Positions 11,089-60,041 of a stretch of 64,000 bases of DNA are shown here, piece by piece. This stretch comes from Escherichia phage vB_EcoM_HZ_ZJUN4. Made by a program: the position numbers and the translations under genes. Each line of letters begins with the position of its first letter. Within the stretch, counting starts at the first letter, position 1. The notes below the pieces were generated by a model that was not told where the DNA came from, ran no database searches, and saw nothing but the letters and a program-made list of their open reading frames with translations. The stretch lies in the sequence record PP216085. One strand, given 5' to 3'.

Positions 11089-11376
11089 ATGAAAACATTT
11101 AAAGAATTTACTTCTACAACTACCCCGGTTTCTACCATTACCGAAGCTACTCTTACTTCTGAAGTTATTAAAGCAAATAAAGGACGAGAAGGTAAACCAA
11201 TGATTAGTCTGGTTGATGGCGAAGAAATCAAAGGTACTGTTTACCTAGGCGATGGGTGGTCTGCTAAAAAGGACGGTGCTACAATCGTTATCTCTCCTGC
11301 TGAAGAAACTGCGTTGTTTAAAGCTAAACACATTTCTGCGGCACATCTCAAAATTATTGCTAAAAATCTTTTGTAA
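11089..11376 (+). CDS. ipI: internal protein I-like capsid-targeted protein (95 aa)
   Basis: N-terminal capsid targeting sequence MKTFKEF and ITE/LTSE protease sites; cleavage after ITE would leave 76 aa, the size I recall for mature IpI. Confidence 0.75.
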   Translation: MKTFKEFTSTTTPVSTITEATLTSEVIKANKGREGKPMISLVDGEEIKGTVYLGDGWSAKKDGATIVISPAEETALFKAKHISAAHLKIIAKNLL

Positions 11377-12404: not shown

Positions 12405-12477
12405 TGGGAATTAGCCAAGTTGGTAAGGCACTGGATTTTGATTCCAGGATGCAAAGGTTCGAGTCCTTTATTCCCAG
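12405..12477 (+). tRNA. tRNA-Gln (anticodon UUG)
   Basis: Cloverleaf: acceptor TGGGAAT/ATTCCCA, anticodon loop TTTTGAT, T-arm GGTTCGAGTCC. Confidence 0.85.
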
Positions 12478-12478
12478 C

Positions 12479-12565
12479 GCGAGAATGGTCAAATTGGTAA
12501 AGGCACAGCACTTAAAATGCTGCGGAATGATTTCCTTGTGGGTTCGAGTCCCACTTCTCGCACCA
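12479..12565 (+). tRNA. tRNA-Leu (anticodon UAA), type II
   Basis: Acceptor GCGAGAA/TTCTCGC, anticodon loop CTTAAAA, long variable arm, encoded CCA. Confidence 0.85.
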
Positions 12566-12570
12566 AATTT

Positions 12571-12644
<74 letters not shown>

Positions 12645-12654
12645 ATTTAATTTA

Positions 12655-12728
12655 CTCCGTGTAGCTCAGTTTGGTAGAGCGCCTGATTTGGGATCAGGAG
12701 GTCCAAGGTTCAAATCCTTGTATGGAGA
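12655..12728 (+). tRNA. tRNA-Pro (anticodon UGG)
   Basis: D-arm GCTCAGTTTGGTAGAGC, anticodon arm CCTGA-TTTGGGA-TCAGG, T-arm CAAGGTTCAAATCCTTG. Confidence 0.8.
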
Positions 12729-12730
12729 CT

Positions 12731-12820
12731 GGAGGCGTGGCAGAGTGGTTTAATGCACCGGTCTTGAAAACCGGCAGTCGCTCCGGCGACTCATAGGTTC
12801 AAATCCTATCGCCTCCGCCA
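12731..12820 (+). tRNA. tRNA-Ser (anticodon UGA), type II
   Basis: Acceptor GGAGGCG/CGCCTCC, anticodon loop CTTGAAA, long variable arm, CCA. Confidence 0.85.
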
Positions 12821-12825
12821 GTTTT

Positions 12826-12901
12826 GCTGATTTAGCTCAGTAGGTAGAGCAACTCACTTGTAATGAGAAGGTCGGCGGTTCGATTCCGTCAATCAGCACC
12901 A
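12826..12901 (+). tRNA. tRNA-Thr (anticodon UGU)
   Basis: Acceptor GCTGATT/AATCAGC, anticodon loop CTTGTAA, T-arm GGCGGTTCGATTCCGTC, CCA. Confidence 0.85.
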
Positions 12902-12902
12902 A

Positions 12903-12977
12903 GGCCCTGTAGCTGGAAGGTTCAAGCAAGCGACTCATAATCGCCAGATGGTGGTTCAATTCCACCCAGGGCCACCA
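12903..12977 (+). tRNA. tRNA-Ile (anticodon CAU, probably lysidine-modified) or tRNA-Met
   Basis: Acceptor GGCCCTG/CAGGGCC, anticodon loop CTCATAA; T4 tRNA-Ile is known to use CAU. Confidence 0.8.
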
Positions 12978-12990
12978 AATTAAGAATTAA

Positions 12991-13077
12991 GGGGAGTTAT
13001 CCCGTAGAGGTAGCGGTGTGGACTGTAAATCCATTGTCATTGCGACTCGGGTGGTTCGACTCCATCACTCCCCACCA
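12991..13077 (+). tRNA. tRNA-Tyr-like (anticodon GUA), type II
   Basis: Acceptor GGGGAGT/ACTCCCC, anticodon arm GTGGA-CTGTAAA-TCCAT, long variable arm resembling bacterial tRNA-Tyr; D-stem only 3 bp. Confidence 0.7.
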
Positions 13078-13081
13078 ATTT

Positions 13082-13156
13082 GGATGTGTAGCTCAATGGC
13101 AGAGCGATCGCCTGTTAAGCGATTGGTTATAGGTTCGAATCCTATCACGTCCGCCA
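13082..13156 (+). tRNA. tRNA-Asn (anticodon GUU)
   Basis: Acceptor GGATGTG/CACGTCC (one G-U), anticodon arm ATCGC-CTGTTAA-GCGAT, T-arm TAGGTTCGAATCCTA, CCA. Confidence 0.8.
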
Positions 13157-13160
13157 AATC

Positions 13161-13236
13161 CGAGGCATAGCTCAGAAGGAAGAGCAAGGACCTTCTAAGT
13201 CCTAGGTCGTAGGTTCGATCCCTACTGCCTCGACCA
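13161..13236 (+). tRNA. tRNA-Arg (anticodon UCU)
   Basis: Acceptor CGAGGCA/TGCCTCG, anticodon arm AGGAC-CTTCTAA-GTCCT, T-arm GTAGGTTCGATCCCTAC, CCA. Confidence 0.8.
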
Positions 13237-13252: not shown

Positions 13253-13603
13253 ATGAAAGGTAATGTTTATTTAGTAGTTCATGATTTAACATTCTATTTT
13301 AATCACAATGACACTGTTATTTCTGAACGTGTAATTAATTTACTTTATCAGCATGCAGATTATGTTTATGTCGAAAACGAATACGGTCATTGGCAATTTC
13401 TCAAAAATCGTTCATTTGGTTTAGATGGTTACGAATACTTTGAACGTAAAGACCTTTTAGATAAAATTCCGTTATCTACACAATATCAAAATCATAAGTC
13501 TTTATATAAATGCCGTCCAATTCGAAATGCTGAATCTGCGTATGAAGTAATTGATTTATGGCGTAAACGTCGTGGACAGGTTGATGCTTTAAAAGAATAC
13601 TAA
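13253..13603 (+). CDS. hypothetical protein (116 aa)
   Basis: ORF with GTGAGGAAAA ribosome-binding site directly after the tRNA array. Confidence 0.6.
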   Translation: MKGNVYLVVHDLTFYFNHNDTVISERVINLLYQHADYVYVENEYGHWQFLKNRSFGLDGYEYFERKDLLDKIPLSTQYQNHKSLYKCRPIRNAESAYEVIDLWRKRRGQVDALKEY

Positions 13604-13914
13604 GAAACCGGGTCGCTACCGGTAAGTCGTCGGACTGATGTTCCCTGGGTAAGGAATTGTGTTAATAAATCTTTATGATTTGTTGATGCCCTCTTACATC
13701 ACAGCAGAAACGGCGCACCGAATTATCGATTCGAGGAAATATCTTTGCCGTAAGCCGAGTAGCGTTTTTGACGGAACGTTCGGATATGGTCGAGATATGG
13801 CCTTTTAAAAATATTAAGTAGCGTCAACTGCTTAATAACCGGGTTCGAATCCCGGCGTTTCGTACAAACACTTGCCTTAGCAGGTGGAACCCCGACAAGG
13901 TTGCCGCAAGGCTT

Positions 13915-13942
13915 AGCCCCGACCGAAAGGTTGGGGCTTTTT
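13915..13942 (+). terminator. intrinsic terminator hairpin (AGCCCCGACC-GAAA-GGTTGGGGCT + T-tract)
   Basis: GC-rich stem with GAAA tetraloop followed by TTTTT; identical copy at 14473. Confidence 0.7.
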
Positions 13943-13944
13943 AG

Positions 13945-13952
13945 TATAAATA
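13945..13952 (+). promoter_or_regulatory. late promoter TATAAATA upstream of ip-like gene
   Basis: Exact TATAAATA about 40 nt upstream of the ATG at 13992, directly after the terminator. Confidence 0.5.
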
Positions 13953-13991: not shown

Positions 13992-14465
13992 ATGAAATCA
14001 TATGCTCAATTTTTAAATGAAGTGGTGTTAAATGAAGCATCCGCTTCAGATGTTCGCGCTGTAGCAACTGCTGCTATTAAAGCTGGTAAATATTCTTATA
14101 AAGATGCTTCTGACGAATCCCGGTACAAGTTCTACGACGATATGAGAGCTGAAGGCTTTGTGGGTAACTATGTTACCACCGCCTGGAAAAGTCTGGTTGC
14201 TACTGGTGCGGCTTTCGAAAAACCTTCCGGTAAACCTGCTCCTAAAGCAGATCCTAAAGCTGCACAAGAAAAAAATATTGTTAAAGGAATTATCGCTAAA
14301 TATGAAGCTATACTTAAAGAGCTTTTAGTAATTAAAACCGAAGGCCAAAAATTAGCCCGTGCCTATAGTTTCAAAGATAATCCACATGCTCATGACCTAG
14401 AGTATGTTGAAGACATCCAAAAAATTATTAAAGACCGCATTTGGTCTGCTAAACAAATCAAATAA
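13992..14465 (+). CDS. capsid-targeted internal-protein-like protein (157 aa)
   Basis: N-terminus MKSYAQFLNEVVLNE matches the T4 capsid targeting sequence pattern with LNE protease sites; basic Lys/Ala-rich body; flanked by identical terminators. Confidence 0.6.
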   Translation: MKSYAQFLNEVVLNEASASDVRAVATAAIKAGKYSYKDASDESRYKFYDDMRAEGFVGNYVTTAWKSLVATGAAFEKPSGKPAPKADPKAAQEKNIVKGIIAKYEAILKELLVIKTEGQKLARAYSFKDNPHAHDLEYVEDIQKIIKDRIWSAKQIK

Positions 14466-14472
14466 CATTCTT

Positions 14473-14500
14473 AGCCCCGACCGAAAGGTTGGGGCTTTTT
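14473..14500 (+). terminator. intrinsic terminator hairpin, identical to 13915-13942
   Basis: Same 34-nt sequence CTTAGCCCCGACCGAAAGGTTGGGGCTTTTTAGT as upstream copy. Confidence 0.7.
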
Positions 14501-14590
14501 AGTTTGAATCGCATAGAGAATGCTGTTACGGATAATAACAAAGTAATAAATAATTAATAACTGACCGATAAATTATTTCAAGGATTTTAA

Positions 14591-15154
14591 ATGAAAACCT
14601 ATGCCGAATTTTTAACCGAAGCAGCAAAATTACCATCTGAAGCAGAACTTACTAAAGTATTCTTCCAATTGGACCCAAAAGACCGTGGCGATTTTCTTAA
14701 GTGGAAAGCTAAAGCTATTGAAATGTATAACATTGATAATAGTTCTTTTACGATGAGTCAAGAAAATAAATTCAATAAAGCATTTTTCAAAATTTCTAAG
14801 AAACTGGCATCTGGCGCTCAGGTTCCTAAATCTGCCTTAGCTACTCCTGAACGTGCGCCTGTTAAAATTTCTAAGAATATGTTCGACACTAAAAAATACG
14901 TTAATGCTTTGAATAAAGCTCTTGATGCATTGGATGATGCAAAGAAGGCAGCCCGTGATCTTCAAGACGTGTACATCGATTTTGATCGTAAAACTAAAGG
15001 TTCTATTTCAAATAGCGAACGCAATAGTGTAAGCGTTTATTCTGATAGCCTTGACGTTCTTGGCGATGCGTATACTGAAATTAAAAATCGTATTAACACC
15101 GCATCTAAACTAAAAGCTGCCGCAGAAGCTATAATAGCTAAACTAGGTAAATAA
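14591..15154 (+). CDS. capsid-targeted internal-protein-like protein (187 aa)
   Basis: N-terminus MKTYAEFLTEAAK (capsid targeting sequence plus LTE cleavage site); Lys-rich helical body. Confidence 0.6.
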   Translation: MKTYAEFLTEAAKLPSEAELTKVFFQLDPKDRGDFLKWKAKAIEMYNIDNSSFTMSQENKFNKAFFKISKKLASGAQVPKSALATPERAPVKISKNMFDTKKYVNALNKALDALDDAKKAARDLQDVYIDFDRKTKGSISNSERNSVSVYSDSLDVLGDAYTEIKNRINTASKLKAAAEAIIAKLGK

Positions 15155-15163
15155 TTTTAAACC

Positions 15164-15188
15164 CCCTATCTAAATGATAGGGCTTTTT
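15164..15188 (+). terminator. intrinsic terminator hairpin (CCCTATC-TAAAT-GATAGGG + T-tract)
   Basis: Perfect 7-bp stem followed by CTTTTTGG. Confidence 0.65.
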
Positions 15189-15947: not shown

Positions 15948-16541
15948 ATGAACACACTGAAGAAAATTGTTGATTTTATTCGCACTAAACTTGGTTCTGC
16001 AATGGCTAAAAATCTATCTGTTGAAGAACAGTATACTGCTGCAGCAGCAAAACTGCTTGATAAAATTAAAGACCTAAAAACTGCTTCTGTTAAATCTATT
16101 AATGAAGAAAAACGTATTCGTGAACTTATTGTTGAAAAGAATAAACAGGCTGAATCAAAAGAGCGTGAAATTCGCAAGCTTCTTTCCGAAGGTCAAGATG
16201 TAACAATGCATGCTAAACTTGGCTTGCTATATCGTCGAACAGCTGAACAGCTGACTACTAAAGCTGATGGGTATGCTGAAATGCGAATTGAAATCGCCAA
16301 GAAAGTAGTTGAGTTAGATGATGCTCGTCAAGAACTTGCAGTTAAATTGGAATATATCCGTGAAACTCGTGCGGCAAATGCCCTTGGAATTAGTACTGCT
16401 GATGATGTAGTTGAAATCGCAGCGCTAACTAAGGTTGATATTGAAGATACCCTTGCTCGAGTTGAAACCTTTAACGGTAATATTTCTGGGGTTGAAACCA
16501 CTTCTGCCGATGTTCAGGAATACATTAATTCTCTGAAATAA
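15948..16541 (+). CDS. coiled-coil protein, possibly PspA/IM30-like (197 aa)
   Basis: Almost entirely predicted helical, Glu/Lys/Arg-rich with amphipathic N-terminal helix; family assignment is a guess from composition only. Confidence 0.55.
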
Positions 16542-16581: not shown

Positions 16582-17190
16582 ATGAGAATGCAAAATGATT
16601 TCAATTCAATGTTTGAAGAGTTCCAAAGACATGTTGATGTTCCAGACCAATTACTAAATGCTCTTAAACGTATGGCAGAAGGACGTAATTACTATTGGGG
16701 CTCTTCGTATGAAACTGATGAAAGCCTTTCTGGAAGACTTTATAGAGGTAAAAAGTCTTTAATACGTCCTGGAATACTTATTAACAGTATTGAATCAATT
16801 CATTCATTGACATGTGATTTTGATGTTGAATTTACTGATTTCATTTCCCCTGAATGGACGGTATGCTATTTAAACGATGATTATGACTATCTTGGCATTT
16901 ATAGTTTAAGTGACGCGGGGTTTAGACGTAATTTACAAAAGTCAAATTTATTTTATATTGATACTACGGTAAAATTTCAAGGCAAGAAATATTTCTTTAC
17001 TCTTATAGTTGACTCTGAAACAAAATATGAAAATAAACGTATTCTTAGTAAAAAGAATATCTTGACTATTATTGATGATCTTTTTGATAAATTCGTGGAA
17101 AATCCTAATTTTGAAAGCGATTTATTATTAGAAAAATTTGTTAAGGAATGTAGAGAATATGTCAAAGCCATCACTATACCTTCCAAGTAA
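16582..17190 (+). CDS. hypothetical protein (202 aa)
   Basis: ORF following a hairpin; no recognisable motif. Confidence 0.6.
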   Translation: MRMQNDFNSMFEEFQRHVDVPDQLLNALKRMAEGRNYYWGSSYETDESLSGRLYRGKKSLIRPGILINSIESIHSLTCDFDVEFTDFISPEWTVCYLNDDYDYLGIYSLSDAGFRRNLQKSNLFYIDTTVKFQGKKYFFTLIVDSETKYENKRILSKKNILTIIDDLFDKFVENPNFESDLLLEKFVKECREYVKAITIPSK

Positions 17191-18934: not shown

Positions 18935-19252
18935 ATGAAAACGTTTAAAGAATTTATTGCAGAATCTGCCCAAGGACAACGTGTAGAAGGCGGTTATATC
19001 TGGATTGAACAAGTTGAGCCGCCAAGTCGCACTTCTACAGGTAAATGGAAAATCACTGTTGATGGTCCTGGTGGTAAACGTAGGACTCTTAAAGAAATTA
19101 ACGGGTACTATGAAGAAGCTCTTTCTGACGCGGGTACTTATATGATGCAAATCATGATTAAAAACCCAGAAAATCGTTTTGCGGCTAGAGTTTTCCGCCG
19201 TATTGGAAATAAGCTTTATGATGCATATTCTAAAAACTTCCCTAAAGAATAA
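18935..19252 (+). CDS. capsid-targeted internal protein (ipIII/ipII position, 105 aa)
   Basis: N-terminus MKTFKEFIAE (capsid targeting sequence plus IAE protease site); located after e as the ip genes are in T4. Confidence 0.7.
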   Translation: MKTFKEFIAESAQGQRVEGGYIWIEQVEPPSRTSTGKWKITVDGPGGKRRTLKEINGYYEEALSDAGTYMMQIMIKNPENRFAARVFRRIGNKLYDAYSKNFPKE

Positions 19253-19268
19253 AAATTAAAGGATACAC

Positions 19269-19742
19269 ATGAAAACATATCAAGAATTTATTACTGAAGC
19301 AGCTATTAATTCTCAAATTATTGCTGAATCTTTTACTGATCTTTTGAAATTTAAAAAAGGACAGAAAATCACTGCTGTATTGGATGATGGTACAGAAGTT
19401 GAGATGGATGTACAGGGATATAATTATGCAGTAGATGGAAAACTGTATAATAAATCTCATGCTAAATTTGATTCATTTGACGACTTTGTTAATACAGTTG
19501 AAGATGAAAAAACTCGTCGATCCATTGCAACTGGTGATGCTAAGGTTCTTATGGCACATGGTCATGAACGCATTCGCGCTAAACAGAATAAAATGGGTGA
19601 AGATAATTTTGCATTAGTTGGTTATCAATCTGGTAAGCAAACTTATGGCTATCAGCGTACTGCTACCATGTATAATAAAAATGGTAAAATCGCTTTCGTG
19701 AATAGTAAAGGTTCTATTCAGTACGTTAAATCGTTCAAATAA
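19269..19742 (+). CDS. capsid-targeted internal protein (ipII/ipIII position, 157 aa)
   Basis: N-terminus MKTYQEFITEAAINSQIIAE with two protease sites. Confidence 0.7.
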   Translation: MKTYQEFITEAAINSQIIAESFTDLLKFKKGQKITAVLDDGTEVEMDVQGYNYAVDGKLYNKSHAKFDSFDDFVNTVEDEKTRRSIATGDAKVLMAHGHERIRAKQNKMGEDNFALVGYQSGKQTYGYQRTATMYNKNGKIAFVNSKGSIQYVKSFK

Positions 19743-46224: not shown

Positions 46225-47427
46225 ATGAAAGTATGTATTTTTATGGCTCGAGGTCTTGAAGGTTGCGGTGTAACTAAATTTTCTCTTGAGCAGCGTGATT
46301 GGTTTATTAAAAATGGTCATGAAGTAACTTTGGTTTATGCTAAAGATAAATCATTTACTCGTAATTGCGCGCATGATTATAAATCATTTTCAATTCCGGT
46401 TTTATTGGCAAAAGAATACGATAAAACACTTAAGTTGGTAAATGATTGTGATATTCTAATTATCAATTCAGTTCCTGCTACTTCAGTTGAAGAAGACACG
46501 ATTAATAACTATAAAAAAATTATTGATAACATTAAACCTTCGGTTCGTGTTGTAGTTTATCAGCATGACCATTCTTCTCTTTCTTTACGCCGAAATTTGG
46601 GATTAGAAGAAACTGTTCGTCGAGCTGATGTTATTTTTAGCCATTCTGATAATGGCGATTTTAATAAAGTTTTAATGAAAGAATGGTATCCAGAAACTGT
46701 TTCACTGTTTGATGATATTGAAGAAGCACCGACTGTATATAACTTTCAGCCTCCTATGGATATTGCGAAGGTTCGATCAACTTACTGGAAAGATGTTTCT
46801 GAAATTAACATGAATATCAACCGTTGGATTGGTCGTACTACTACATGGAAAGGCTTTTATCAGATGTTTGATTTTCACGAAAAACATCTTAAACCTGCAG
46901 GACTAAGTACTATTATGGAAGGTCTGGAACGTTCTCCAGCGTTCATTCCTATTAAAGAAAAAGGAATTCCATACGAGTATTATCGTCTTCATCAAGTAGA
47001 CCAAATTAAAATTGCTCCTAATTTGCCAACGCAAATTCTCGACCGTTATGTAAATAGCGAAATGCTTGAACGTATGAGTAAATCCGGATTTGGTTATCAG
47101 CTGAGTAAATTAGATAAAAAATATCTACAACGTTCTTTAGAATACACTCATCTCGAGCTTGGTGCATGCGGAACAATTCCAGTATTTTGGAAATCTACTG
47201 GTGAAAATTTAAAATTCCGTGTTGATAATACTCCGTTAATTTCTCATGATAGCGGTATCGTTTGGTTTGATGAAAATGACATGAAATCAACATTTGAGCG
47301 TATTAAAGAACTGTCATCTGACCGAGCTCTTTATGACCGTGAACGTGAAAAAGCTTATGAATTTTTGTATCAGCATCAAGATTCAAGCTTCTGCTTTAAA
47401 GAGCAGTTTGACATTATTACAAAATAA
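46225..47427 (+). CDS. a-gt: DNA alpha-glucosyltransferase (400 aa)
   Basis: 400-aa ORF MKVCIFMARGLEGCGVTKFSLEQRDWF...; size and position between 55 and 47 match T4 a-gt. Confidence 0.88.
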   Translation: MKVCIFMARGLEGCGVTKFSLEQRDWFIKNGHEVTLVYAKDKSFTRNCAHDYKSFSIPVLLAKEYDKTLKLVNDCDILIINSVPATSVEEDTINNYKKIIDNIKPSVRVVVYQHDHSSLSLRRNLGLEETVRRADVIFSHSDNGDFNKVLMKEWYPETVSLFDDIEEAPTVYNFQPPMDIAKVRSTYWKDVSEINMNINRWIGRTTTWKGFYQMFDFHEKHLKPAGLSTIMEGLERSPAFIPIKEKGIPYEYYRLHQVDQIKIAPNLPTQILDRYVNSEMLERMSKSGFGYQLSKLDKKYLQRSLEYTHLELGACGTIPVFWKSTGENLKFRVDNTPLISHDSGIVWFDENDMKSTFERIKELSSDRALYDREREKAYEFLYQHQDSSFCFKEQFDIITK

Positions 47428-57829: not shown

Positions 57830-58570
57830 ATGATTAATGACTCTATGACAGTTGAAGAAATTCGTCTTCATTTGGGAATTGCATTAAAGGAAAAAGATTT
57901 TGTAATTGACAAAACCGGGGTTAAAACTATTGAAATTATTGGTGCATCATTTGTAGCAGATGAACCTTTTATTTTTGGCGCTCTTAATGATGAATACATT
58001 CAGCGTGAACTTGAATGGTATAAGTCTCAAAGTTTGTTTGTTAAAGATATTCCAGGTGAAACACCAAAGATTTGGCAGCAGGTAGCATCTTCTAAAGGCG
58101 AAATTAACTCGAATTATGGTTGGGCTATTTGGTCAGAAGATAACTATGCTCAGTATGATATGTGTTTAGCTGAACTTGGTCAAAATCCTGATTCTCGGCG
58201 TGGTATCATGATTTATACTCGTCCATCCATGCAGTTTGACTACAATAAAGATGGTATGTCAGATTTCATGTGTACGAATACAGTACAGTACCTGATTCGT
58301 GATAAGAAAGTCAATGCAGTAGTAAGCATGAGAAGCAATGATTGCTGGGCAGGCTATCGTAATGATTATGCTTGGCAAAAATACGTACTAGATAAATTAG
58401 TATCTGACTTGAATGCAGGCGACCCATCGCGGCAATATAAAGCAGGTTCTATTATATGGAACGTTGGAAGTCTTCATGTGTACGAAAATCAGTTTTATTT
58501 AGTTGACCATTGGTGGAACACCGGTGAGACTCATATTGCTAAAAAGGATTATACTGGAAAATGGAAGTAA
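57830..58570 (+). CDS. 42: dCMP hydroxymethylase gp42 (246 aa)
   Basis: 246-aa ORF MINDSMTVEEIRLHLG...; thymidylate-synthase-like fold; matches T4 gp42. Confidence 0.93.
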   Translation: MINDSMTVEEIRLHLGIALKEKDFVIDKTGVKTIEIIGASFVADEPFIFGALNDEYIQRELEWYKSQSLFVKDIPGETPKIWQQVASSKGEINSNYGWAIWSEDNYAQYDMCLAELGQNPDSRRGIMIYTRPSMQFDYNKDGMSDFMCTNTVQYLIRDKKVNAVVSMRSNDCWAGYRNDYAWQKYVLDKLVSDLNAGDPSRQYKAGSIIWNVGSLHVYENQFYLVDHWWNTGETHIAKKDYTGKWK

Positions 58571-59202
58571 ATGTGCCACATGTTTATAAGTATAAACATC
58601 CTAAAACTAAAAAGTGGTATATAGGAAGTCATGATGGTCACAACCCGAATTATGATGGTTCGGGTGTAGTTTGGCAACATGCTAAAAAGAAATATGGAAT
58701 AAAATCCTTTAATAAAGAAATATTATATGAAGGACCAATGTTTAGACAGGTTGAAGAAATTATTTTAACTTGTTTAGATGCTGCTAATTGTCCGGATTCA
58801 TATAATTTAAAGAATGAAGCATGGGGAGGAAGTTTTCCAGGCAAATTAAATGGAATGTACGGTAAAAAACTATCTCCAGAAGAAAGATATAAGTGCGGAA
58901 ATGCCTTTCGTGGAATCAAGCGTCCTGATCATTCTAAAAGAATGAAAGGCGAAGGTAATCCAATGTATGGTAAAAATGAGCAGGCATATGGAATTATAAA
59001 TCGAGCCAAGGAAAATTCTGGTAAAACTTATGAAGAAATTTTTGGCGTAGAAAAAGCTAAAATAATTAAAGAAACGATGTCTAAAAATCGTAAAGGAAAA
59101 CCTCATAATTTGATAGAAAAAATATGTCCGCATTGCGGACTAAAAGGACGTGGGCCAAATATGACAAGATACCATTTTGACAAATGTAAGGCACTTAAAT
59201 GA
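58561..59202 (+). mobile_element. GIY-YIG homing endonuclease (seg-like, 213 aa)
   Basis: GIY-YIG motif VYKYKHPKTKKWYIGS near N-terminus; repeated NUMOD-like modules (NGMYGKK, NPMYGKN); C-terminal Cys pair. Confidence 0.75.
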
Positions 59203-60041
59203 TTCAATTCGTAATTCCAAGTTATCAACGCGTAGGGGCAGTTTCTGCCCTTGATATGTTTCCGACTGATTATGAACCTCATATTGTAGTACGTGAACAC
59301 GAAGAAAAAGCTTATTATGACGCTTACGGGTCTAGAGCTAAAATTATAACTATTCCTGATGATGTTAATGGAATTGCTGGAACTCGTAAAGCAATTACTG
59401 ATATGTATGCAGGTCAACGAATCTGGATGATTGACGATGATACTACTATTCGTATGAGTTCAATGCGAAAGAAAGATGATCGTCGCTGCGTAGATAAAAT
59501 TAACCAGTTAACTCGTGAACAGTTCTATGAATTGATTCAATACGTTGAAGATGCCATGGATTGCGGGTATTATCATGGTCATGCTCGTTTACCTATTTTT
59601 AAAATTACTTCATCTTGGGGTAATTATCGTGAAAATTCATATGGATTCACGAATACTTGGTATGACCTCGGAAAACTTGCAACAGAACAAATTGGGTATG
59701 GAAAAATTGATTTATGCGAAGATATGTATGCATTTCTCAATTTAATTAATCAAGGTTATCCGCATTTGGCCTTGTTCAAATATCTAGTTGTATCTGGAAA
59801 AGCACAGGCTCCCGGTGGATGCAGCTCAATTCGTAGTAATTCAAAACATAATAGAGCGCTTGAGCAAATCAATAGAGAGTTTCCAGAGCAAGCTCGTTGG
59901 AAAACTTCTAATATTGAAAAACGAAAATCATTGGGTGAAGAAGACGAGCCATTAAAGGTTCTTCGCATGTGTGTTTCACGCAAAGAAAAGTCAGAAGCAT
60001 TTCATAAGTTTAATGCTATTCATCCAATAGCAGTTGATTAA
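59199..60041 (+). CDS. probable DNA glycosyltransferase at the beta-gt locus (280 aa)
   Basis: Located between 42 and uvsX where T4 has beta-gt, but at 280 aa it does not match T4 beta-gt as I recall it; possibly the T2/T6-type second glucosyltransferase. Confidence 0.5.
   Translation: MIQFVIPSYQRVGAVSALDMFPTDYEPHIVVREHEEKAYYDAYGSRAKIITIPDDVNGIAGTRKAITDMYAGQRIWMIDDDTTIRMSSMRKKDDRRCVDKINQLTREQFYELIQYVEDAMDCGYYHGHARLPIFKITSSWGNYRENSYGFTNTWYDLGKLATEQIGYGKIDLCEDMYAFLNLINQGYPHLALFKYLVVSGKAQAPGGCSSIRSNSKHNRALEQINREFPEQARWKTSNIEKRKSLGEEDEPLKVLRMCVSRKEKSEAFHKFNAIHPIAVD

Follow-up and report, generated by a model that had tools for sequence, protein, structure and literature searches.

What kind of protein is encoded by the 187-codon gene that lies 3′ of the tRNA array in Escherichia phage vB_EcoM_HZ_ZJUN4, and is it carried in the phage head? 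We addressed this question in a stretch of 64,000 nucleotides (nt) from that phage (sequence record PP216085), referred to below as the window. The open reading frame (ORF) concerned, here called ORF B, runs from an ATG at 14591 to a stop codon at 15152 to 15154. Its product, 187 amino acids (aa) long, has the N terminus MKTYAEFLTEAAK, and a Shine-Dalgarno sequence, AAGGA (14580 to 14584), lies 6 nt 5′ of the ATG. Like ORF B, all of the signals, repeats, hairpins, and leader-bearing genes whose positions are given below, as well as the rnaD and rnaC homologs, lie on the plus strand. Relative to its orthologs in phages RB14, G50, and F26, ORF B shows 12 to 19 synonymous and 5 to 8 nonsynonymous differences. 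Because the ratio of the proportions of nonsynonymous and synonymous differences (pN/pS) is 0.07 to 0.18 in these three comparisons, ORF B is a genuine coding gene under purifying selection. A previous sequence-only reading had proposed that it opens with a capsid targeting sequence and a protease site, and we put the probability that its product is a capsid-targeted internal protein (Ip) processed by the protease gp21 at about three in four.

A T4-type leader on ORF B

The first 10 codons of ORF B (14591 to 14620) encode the capsid targeting sequence MKTYAEFLTE, with a predicted gp21 cut after Glu10, between LTE and Ala. This leader is identical to that of T4 IPII and IPIII (MKTYQEFIAE) at 7 of 10 positions (1 to 4, 6, 7, and 10) and has a conservative I-to-L change at position 8. 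Amber suppression in the IPIII leader assigned targeting to residues 4 and 7 and processing to residues 8 and 10 (PMC9026906), and the equivalent residues, Y4 and F7 for targeting and L8 and E10 for processing, are all present in ORF B. The first 10 residues alone bring green fluorescent protein, nuclease, and β-galactosidase into T4 heads (PMC9026906, PMC3012670). The cleavage site is credible because the LTE tripeptide is an established gp21 site in Alt, which is cut after ITE-6 and LTE-619 (PMC5694885). L8-T9-E10, followed by A11, is the sole [LI]xE site in the ORF B protein; since shuffled sequences average only about 1.1 extra sites, this depletion of further gp21 sites is not significant (P = 0.30). 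The proposed targeting sequence with its protease site thus matches the T4 leader at the residues that matter.

Searching the six-frame translation of the window with the motif MK[ST][YF].[EQ]F gave five matches, where composition predicts 0.01, a 500-fold excess. All five sit at the starts of plus-strand ORFs, namely, ipI (11089), ORF A (13992), ORF B (14591), and two genes after e (18935 and 19269). This agrees with the earlier claim of five leader-bearing genes in about 9 kb, and ORF A and ORF B are both located 3′ of the tRNA array, where ORF B had been described as the second extra gene of this kind. The same claim had contrasted the number with the three classical T4 Ips. The count of five stands, but it is nothing unusual, since at least 10 Ips have been described in T-even phages (PMC12373910).

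We also aligned 17 sequences of the family to which ORF B belongs. Although their bodies are only 16 to 26% identical to that of ORF B, the leader is retained: apart from a single Lys, the alignment is invariant only at M1, L8, and E10, with Y or F at position 4 in every sequence and F or I at position 7. Even the distant members, from PG7 and Marfa and the protein P0013, begin M-x-x-F-x-[ED]-[FI]-[IL]-x-E. This conservation of the leader amid diverged bodies, a comparative and motif-based observation, is the strongest argument that ORF B is a candidate for capsid targeting. The genes for the gp21 protease and the gp22 core protein lie outside the window; we infer from the genus that the phage has them, because complete Tequatrovirus genomes contain orthologs of the genes in the window.

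Among known proteins, ORF B comes closest to T4 IPII and IPIII, with which it shares a near-identical leader of 10 residues and a gp21 site at residues 8 to 10 followed by Ala. They too are small, basic, and nonenzymatic, and their genes are variably present among T-even phages. Their bodies, however, are dissimilar, and their genes lie beside e, whereas ORF B lies between rnaC and e.8. Ip2 and Ip3 are specific inhibitors of GmrSD (PMC12373910), and neither shares the arrangement of N-terminal domain, linker, and hairpin seen in ORF B. T4 IPI* (PF11634), another GmrSD inhibitor, is also targeted to the head, cut at ITE followed by A, and injected, and the window has its own copy at 11089 to 11376. 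Nevertheless, the propeptide of IPI comprises 19 residues and the protein folds into a compact alpha/beta structure (PMC3012670), whereas ORF B has a 10-residue leader, an all-helical model, and no match to PF11634.

A candidate promoter for ORF B is the variant T4 late-promoter box AATAAATA (14545 to 14552), which has an A at −13 and lies 38 nt before the start codon. A(−13) is the commonest natural variant of T4 late promoters, found at 9 of 50 sites (PMC2988020). The sequence ATAAATA is kept upstream of ORF B in RB14 (GATAAATA) and in RB69. A perfect box, TATAAATA (13945 to 13952), lies 39 nt before the ORF A start, directly 3′ of the first of three hairpin copies described below, and the same layout of a hairpin and then a late box precedes the family members of PG7 (TATAAATA) and Marfa (CATAAATA). 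Late transcription of ORF B would start at its own AATAAATA box, at the TATAAATA box of ORF A with read-through into ORF B, or at both. The leader MKTYAEFLTE, a motif whose sufficiency is experimental in T4, would dock the precursor on the scaffolding core of the assembling prohead. A single gp21 cut after Glu10 would then leave a basic, all-helical protein of 177 aa and 19.6 kDa free among the capsid DNA (predicted mature protein, residues 11 to 187, pI 9.5; coding sequence with stop codon, 14621 to 15154).

The protein might instead never be packaged but act late in infection within the cytoplasm of the cell that makes it, its leader being an inherited remnant or a recombination joint between Ip cassettes. 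Such a reading would be in keeping with a late promoter that is only a variant, with a gene position outside the two recognized Ip loci, and with the choice of the RB14 and RB32 annotators to leave ORF A and ORF B unnamed while naming Ip4, Ip5, Ip7, and Ip9. However, the 10-residue leader suffices for arbitrary cargo in T4 (PMC9026906), so a late-expressed protein that carries it should enter proheads. PG7, Marfa, and P0013 differ in codons and in noncritical residues, yet they keep F/Y4, F/I7, L/I8, and E10. Finally, Gp140 of phage fD1, the ortholog of the paralog ORF A, is listed among particle-associated proteins. We give a protein that stays behind in the producing cell little credence.

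The body of ORF B and its family

The body of ORF B had been described as Lys-rich and helical with no recognizable enzymatic motif, and this description held. Lys makes up 14.4% of the protein (27 of 187 residues), and the mature form would have a pI of 9.5, a net charge of +9, no Cys, and no His. A single-sequence AlphaFold2 model was poor, with a predicted local distance difference test (pLDDT) score of 62, so the model based on the multiple sequence alignment of the family (mean pLDDT, 75.6) was used. It is all-helical, with a disordered leader, a small helical N domain (residues ~17 to 73), and a low-confidence Pro/Ala/Lys linker (~74 to 94). The C-terminal domain is modeled as a long antiparallel helical hairpin with helices at 101 to 134 and 141 to 184.

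Structure prediction and a fold search had been suggested as checks. The prediction gave a usable helical model, but the searches were uninformative about function. No domain scored above threshold in Pfam, NCBIfam, or PADLOC; a Pfam match to cytochrome b562 (E = 0.007; 17 bits against a cutoff of 30) was set aside as reflecting the helical bundle only. Foldseek with the ORF B model found nothing in the PDB at an E value below 0.1, with ferritins at TM scores of 0.2 to 0.3, and a structure search of BFVD returned family members only. A profile search of the PDB gave designed antiparallel coiled coils only, and no functional inference was drawn from these.

The segment encoding the linker is flanked by perfect 14-nt direct repeats, AAAATTTCTAAGAA, at 14789 to 14802 and 14864 to 14877. 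In the ORF B copy of Shigella phage CT01, an exact in-frame deletion of 75 nt between these repeats has removed the linker and fused the helical domains. This loss fits a flexible tether joining two domains.

ORF B is present in 164 phage records, in 163 of which the protein is at least 95% identical to ours. Its carriers are phages of Escherichia, Shigella, Yersinia, Citrobacter, and Salmonella, and among the matches listed it is annotated as "hypothetical" or "phage protein" throughout. It corresponds to RB14ncORF136c and to bas37_0243 of phage Bas37 (KarlGJung), while the copy in RB69, a Mosigvirus, is split into ORF148c and ORF149c. At the DNA level, the RB69 copy (L006, 11429 to 11991) matches the Tequatrovirus copies at about 95% identity, the promoter region upstream of it included, a likeness that suggests a recent exchange of the cassette between genera.

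We compared the body of ORF B with T4 IPI to IPIII, with Ip4, Ip5, Ip7, and Ip9 of RB32, and with the Ips of RB69, and found no similarity (all scores below 3 bits). The RB14 and RB32 records use the names Ip4, Ip5, Ip7, and Ip9 for other genes and leave the ORF A and ORF B orthologs unnamed. Because its body has no similarity to the Ips of T4, RB32, and RB69, ORF B is, judged by its sequence, not one of the described Ips; for Ip4 to Ip13, this exclusion of ORF A and ORF B rests on the naming by the RB14 and RB32 annotators.

Both proteins are members of phrog_2280, a family labeled "unknown function," ORF B with an E value of 3.4e-53 (residues 1 to 181 against profile positions 1 to 178 of 178) and ORF A, over its full length, with an E value of 1.7e-54. 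BLASTP of ORF A against ORF B aligned the leader only and did not detect any relationship between the N domains. A comparison of ORF B-type and ORF A-type profiles with hhalign linked them over the C-terminal hairpin (probability, 95%; E = 2e-8). ORF A thus shares with ORF B, PG7_146, Marfa_137, and RB69ORF148c/149c the membership of phrog_2280, the slot between the tRNAs and e.8, the leader, the linker, and the C-terminal hairpin, but it differs from ORF B in its N domain and in tolerating transposon insertions, which ORF B does not.

The databases searched, of 5.8 and 1.8 billion proteins, contained near-identical copies of ORF B and a single informative distant relative, P0013 (32% identity). 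Beyond P0013, the search of 1.8 billion representatives gave only fragments and two chance matches to repeat proteins. P0013 itself matches 350 phage records, from Karamvirus, Marfavirus, and others, and a scan of IMG/VR added only 7 loci. Across the members from four genera, the plan begins with the leader and a helical N domain, for which at least two unrelated types exist, and continues with a Pro/Ala/Lys linker and a C domain that is usually of the hairpin type; P0028 to P0033 differ in the last (DIPGLKVRGKYGS...). The proteins P0028 to P0033 and P0037 have a leader and N domain of the PG7/Marfa type, yet their C-terminal domain is wholly different (DIPGLKVRGKYGSI...LSYNA), which points to domain shuffling around the linker. 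Family members occupy the slot from the tRNA array to e.8 in PG7 (Karamvirus), Marfa (Marfavirus), RB69 (Mosigvirus), and Tequatroviruses.

Hairpin-bounded cassettes between rnaC and e.8

The window is a Tequatrovirus segment that carries genes 3, 1, 57A, 57B, and ipI, tRNA.4, tRNA.3, and tRNA.2, ten tRNAs, the ORF A/B region, e.8 to nudE, e, and two Ip-type genes. The homologs of rnaD and rnaC (13603 to 13947) are 95% identical to the T4 rnaD/rnaC region. Neither matched any Rfam family even at E values of up to 1, and the T4 rnaD and rnaC RNAs appear to have no Rfam family. The 3′ hairpin of rnaC (13915 to 13938, followed by a run of T's), identified in a terminator scan, is the first copy of a repeat (repeat family D2). 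Next comes ORF A (13992 to 14465), which encodes a protein of 157 aa with the leader MKSYAQFLNE, followed by V, and corresponds to RB32ORF133c, fD1 g140, and bas37_0244. The second terminator hairpin (AGCCCCGACCGAAAGGTTGGGGCT, then TTTTT; 14473 to 14496) lies at the junction of cassettes A and B.

The third copy is a diverged hairpin 3′ of ORF B (15164 to 15188), found in both the terminator and repeat scans. It has the form CCCTATC-TAAAT-GATAGGG (CCCTATCTAAATGATAGGG) and is followed by CTTTTTGG, and the annotations of phages G50, G29, and OE5505 give the same element as a terminator. The claim that ORF B ends in its own terminator therefore stands, position 15188 being the end of this terminator rather than that of the coding sequence, whose stop codon comes earlier. 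Each part of the sequence-only reading of ORF B that could be examined at the sequence level was upheld.

Comparison with other phages showed how this arrangement is put together. The window and Bas37 both have A and then B, with three copies of the hairpin repeat (at 13917, 14475, and 15163 in the window). At the T4 site, the rnaC 3′ hairpin (AGCCCCGACCGAAAGGTTGGGGCTTTTT) leads straight into the region upstream of e.8 with no cassette, and homology to T4 restarts at 15163 in the window, past ORF B; T2 and T6, like T4, carry an empty site. In RB32, ORF A sits exactly after CTTTTT and is followed by a second hairpin copy, whereas RB14 has ORF B at that same position and then a diverged hairpin. 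ORF A and ORF B are thus tandem cassettes with rnaC-hairpin borders, inserted between rnaC and e.8 at the end of ...GGGGCTTTTT. Since the cassette borders are copies of the hairpin, gain, loss, and stacking would be possible by recombination at the hairpins, and these cassettes show concretely how such genes get swapped and stacked.

The slot between rnaC and e.8 is a third site, outside the two recognized Ip loci (the ipI locus and the ipII/ipIII locus beside e), which in the words of Silas et al. are "the two Ip loci" (PMC12373910). The empty site in T2, T4, and T6 probably explains why this one is missing from the classical literature. In the window, the first recognized locus holds ipI (11089 to 11376; Pfam IPI_T4), which encodes a classical leader protein. 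The second, 3′ of e, holds a leader-bearing ORF of 105 aa (18935 to 19252; phrog_3966; MKTFKEFIAE followed by S) and Ip4/DUF7412 (19269 to 19742), whose leader, compared over the first 40 residues, is identical to that of RB32 Ip4. PHROGs gives phrog_3966 as "unknown function" and does not label it as an internal protein despite the leader. The 105-aa ORF and ipI both have a promoter of the T4 early type (GTTTAC...TAGTAT) upstream, not a late box.

The ten-tRNA array (12405 to 13236; Gln, Leu, Gly, Pro, Ser, Thr, Met/Ile-CAT, Tyr, Asn, and Arg) is uninterrupted. T4 has eight tRNAs, interrupted by the homing endonuclease gene segB, which is absent from the array in the window. An ORF of 116 aa (13253 to 13603), which has no capsid targeting leader, lies between tRNA-Arg and the rnaD homolog. 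It is found in T2, G50, F26, and Bas37 (bas37_0245, nonessential) and is not found in T4 and T6; ORF150c of RB69 resembles it in size and position.

Essentiality of ORF B and its possible role

The HIDEN-SEQ transposon map of Bas37 (10.1101/2025.11.20.689424) gives the ORF B ortholog bas37_0243 an "Essential" consensus call in the reference library. It was hit at 1 of 48 TA sites (saturation, 0.02) in every condition, with mean counts of 0.2, compared with 300 to 900 in its neighbors. All of the surrounding genes are nonessential, and so are two Ip genes: insertions were recovered at 29 of 34 TA sites in the ORF A ortholog bas37_0244, at 33 of 38 in bas37_0245, and at all of the sites in e.8 (23/23) and in the Ip genes 0260 (15/15) and 0261 (18/18). 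The main text of that study is silent on bas37_0243. The gene is absent from T2, T4, T6, RB32, and fD1, and three phages carry independent 1-nt deletions in it, at nt 151 in G29, at nt 301 (in an A6 run) in OE5505, and at nt 368 in RB69. Two of these are outside homopolymers, and the frameshifts represent either recurrent natural pseudogenization or sequencing errors.

Several explanations of the gap in insertions were considered and dropped. Weak local transcription of a promoterless marker was dismissed, as the transposon is equipped with a J23119 promoter. Toxicity of truncated leader peptides is unlikely, since phages tolerate natural truncation of the protein at residues 50, 100, and 122, and a toxin-antitoxin pair of ORF A and ORF B was rejected because each gene occurs alone (in RB32 and RB14, respectively). 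The remaining possibilities are a real, context-dependent need (for example, imposed by some factor of K-12 distinct from McrA, McrBC, Mrr, and EcoKI), a dependence specific to Bas37, or a phage stock that lacks the cassette.

The gap could also mean that ORF B is a required component of the head core or an organizer of DNA, which aids core assembly or neutralizes or organizes the packaged DNA, and not an effector against host defense. The leader would then bring an elongated, basic, coiled-coil protein into the prohead, and the phages that carry the gene would have come to need it for viable heads. A value of 1 of 48 TA sites against 85 to 100% in all neighboring genes would be expected of such a component, the more so as the J23119 promoter excludes weak transcription and the gap requires that insertions be lost in both orientations. 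A long antiparallel hairpin, the net charge of +9, and a Lys content of 14.7% would suit a scaffold-like or DNA-associated protein, and the occupation of the same slot across four genera makes the family older and more conserved than typical Ips. Yet T2, T4, T6, RB32, and fD1 form normal heads without ORF B, frameshifted copies do not prevent G29, OE5505, and RB69 from being viable, and CT01 lacks the linker. Moreover, the prohead core proteins gp22, gp67, and gp68, which have several gp21 sites, are cut by gp21 to short fragments (PMC5694885) and so cleared from the head, whereas ORF B has a single site, at residue 10. We consider a structural requirement of this kind improbable.

Another way to account for the "Essential" call in Bas37 is that the cassette acts in cis or in an addiction-like manner, for example as an antidote to a phage or host toxin, or that the call is an artifact of a Bas37 stock that had lost the 688-bp cassette; ORF B would then have no role in the capsid. 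The distribution of the gene is patchy and cassette-like, the 95% DNA identity between RB69 and Tequatroviruses suggests horizontal spread, and the hairpin repeats on either side of the cassette offer a route to its precise loss. Obligate addiction, however, is hard to square with the natural frameshift alleles of three phages, the occurrence of A without B and of B without A speaks against a toxin-antitoxin pair, and strong purifying selection together with a family-wide leader demands an explanation at the level of the protein. A stock artifact would account for the transposon data, yet it would leave the function of the protein unexplained. An explanation confined to the cassette or the stock seems to us very improbable.

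Two genes adjoining the ORF B locus, bas37_0240 (e.6; 15948 to 16541) and bas37_0239 (e.5; 16582 to 17190), are strongly depleted in the HIDEN-SEQ supplement, with log2 fold changes of −6.49 and −3.62, respectively. These values come from a comparison with clinical strains, apparently the first resampling sheet, K-12 versus CFT073. A knockout plasmid for bas37_0240 is listed, and the main text discusses neither gene. Both are candidates for conditionally essential or anti-defense genes.

To return to a packaged and processed ORF B protein, it would, by analogy, exit the head with the DNA at infection and act ahead of phage gene expression. In the most speculative step, it would bind a host factor stoichiometrically, most likely a defense nuclease acting on DNA with glucosylated hydroxymethylcytosine (glucosyl-hmC) or another barrier that operates before expression. 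We regard this anti-defense step as tentative, with slightly less than an even chance of being right; it is suggested by analogy because all four characterized leader proteins, Ip1, Ip2, Ip3, and Bas37_0260, act in that way. Ip1, Ip2, and Ip3 are each active against a single GmrSD variant, without cross-protection (PMC12373910), and Bas37_0260, a leader protein with an unrelated body, inhibits McrBC (10.1101/2025.11.20.689424).

The DNA of the phage is presumably a substrate for enzymes of the GmrSD type. The window encodes a DNA alpha-glucosyltransferase (46225 to 47427; PF11440, E = 1e-235), a gp42-like dCMP hydroxymethylase of the thymidylate synthase family (57830 to 58570), and, beside the latter, a TAGT-like glycosyltransferase of 280 aa (59199 to 60041), and because of these three genes, we presume that the DNA carries glucosyl-hmC. 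The glucosylation genes point to a T2/T6-style set and not to the beta-gt of T4.

Bas37_0260, at the ipI locus, is the most instructive comparison. Like ORF B it bears a leader and occurs in Bas37, and it has nothing but that leader in common with Ip1 to Ip3; it is proof that new Ip families can counter type IV restriction (10.1101/2025.11.20.689424). Unlike bas37_0243, which was hit at 1 of 48 TA sites in every condition, it was hit at 15 of 15 in the reference library, where it is nonessential, and is needed conditionally, on BW25113. The likeness between ORF B and the inhibitors of GmrSD and McrBC lies in the shared delivery route only, the homology test, which covered Ip1 to Ip3 and the named Ips of RB32 and RB69, being negative. 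As a purely functional analogy, T4 gp2, which protects DNA ends, is carried in the head, delivered with the DNA, and conditionally essential through its blocking of RecBCD (PMC3012670), and it provides a precedent for an injected protein that scores as essential on K-12. It has no sequence relationship to ORF B, however, lacks a leader, binds DNA ends, and is a conserved core gene, whereas ORF B is accessory.

Several observations weigh against an injected, anti-defense ORF B protein. Its packaging and processing are predictions, if strong ones, from the leader motif, and the list of fD1 particle proteins, which covers only the paralog (Gp140), is unspecific, with lysozyme e, NudE, DenV, and thymidine kinase among its entries. 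The paper on phages fPS-65 and fPS-90 contains no proteome. The late box of ORF B is only a variant, and the gene has no consensus box of its own. An "Essential" call is atypical, the other scored leader genes (0244, 0260, and 0261) being nonessential, while the frameshifted copies in G29, OE5505, and RB69 indicate that some backgrounds do not require the gene. No new inhibition of the newly tested GmrSD systems was seen with ten other ip genes, of which seven have no assigned target (PMC12373910), so that "Ip equals GmrSD inhibitor" is not a rule. The supplement of Silas et al., in which only ip4 to ip10 were tested, contains no sequence matching the ORF A or ORF B leader. Finally, the body of ORF B has no likeness to characterized Ips or to solved structures beyond generic hairpins, and it is for this reason that the anti-defense role rests on analogy.

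ORF B is a previously unnamed, predicted leader-type internal protein of T-even phages, and what is new about it is a third cassette locus, a domain-shuffled family that spans several genera, and an essentiality signal that had gone unremarked. The gene, which represents an unnamed Ip-type family, occurs in about a third of the sequenced phages of the T4 genus, many of them candidates for therapy. A more far-reaching possibility, and one we hold to be doubtful, is that the slot from rnaC to e.8 is a third internal-protein locus for an injected, domain-shuffled family older than the classical Ips and that ORF B is indispensable for Bas37-type phages on K-12 even without McrA, McrBC, Mrr, and EcoKI. 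If so, ORF B would either neutralize a resident K-12 barrier at DNA entry or be a head component on which the phage depends. If the "Essential" call is real, the countered host factor could be found by a suppressor screen in K-12. Injected leader proteins are the phage's first counter-defense, acting before phage gene expression, and the four characterized to date all disable type IV restriction, each being specific for one enzyme.

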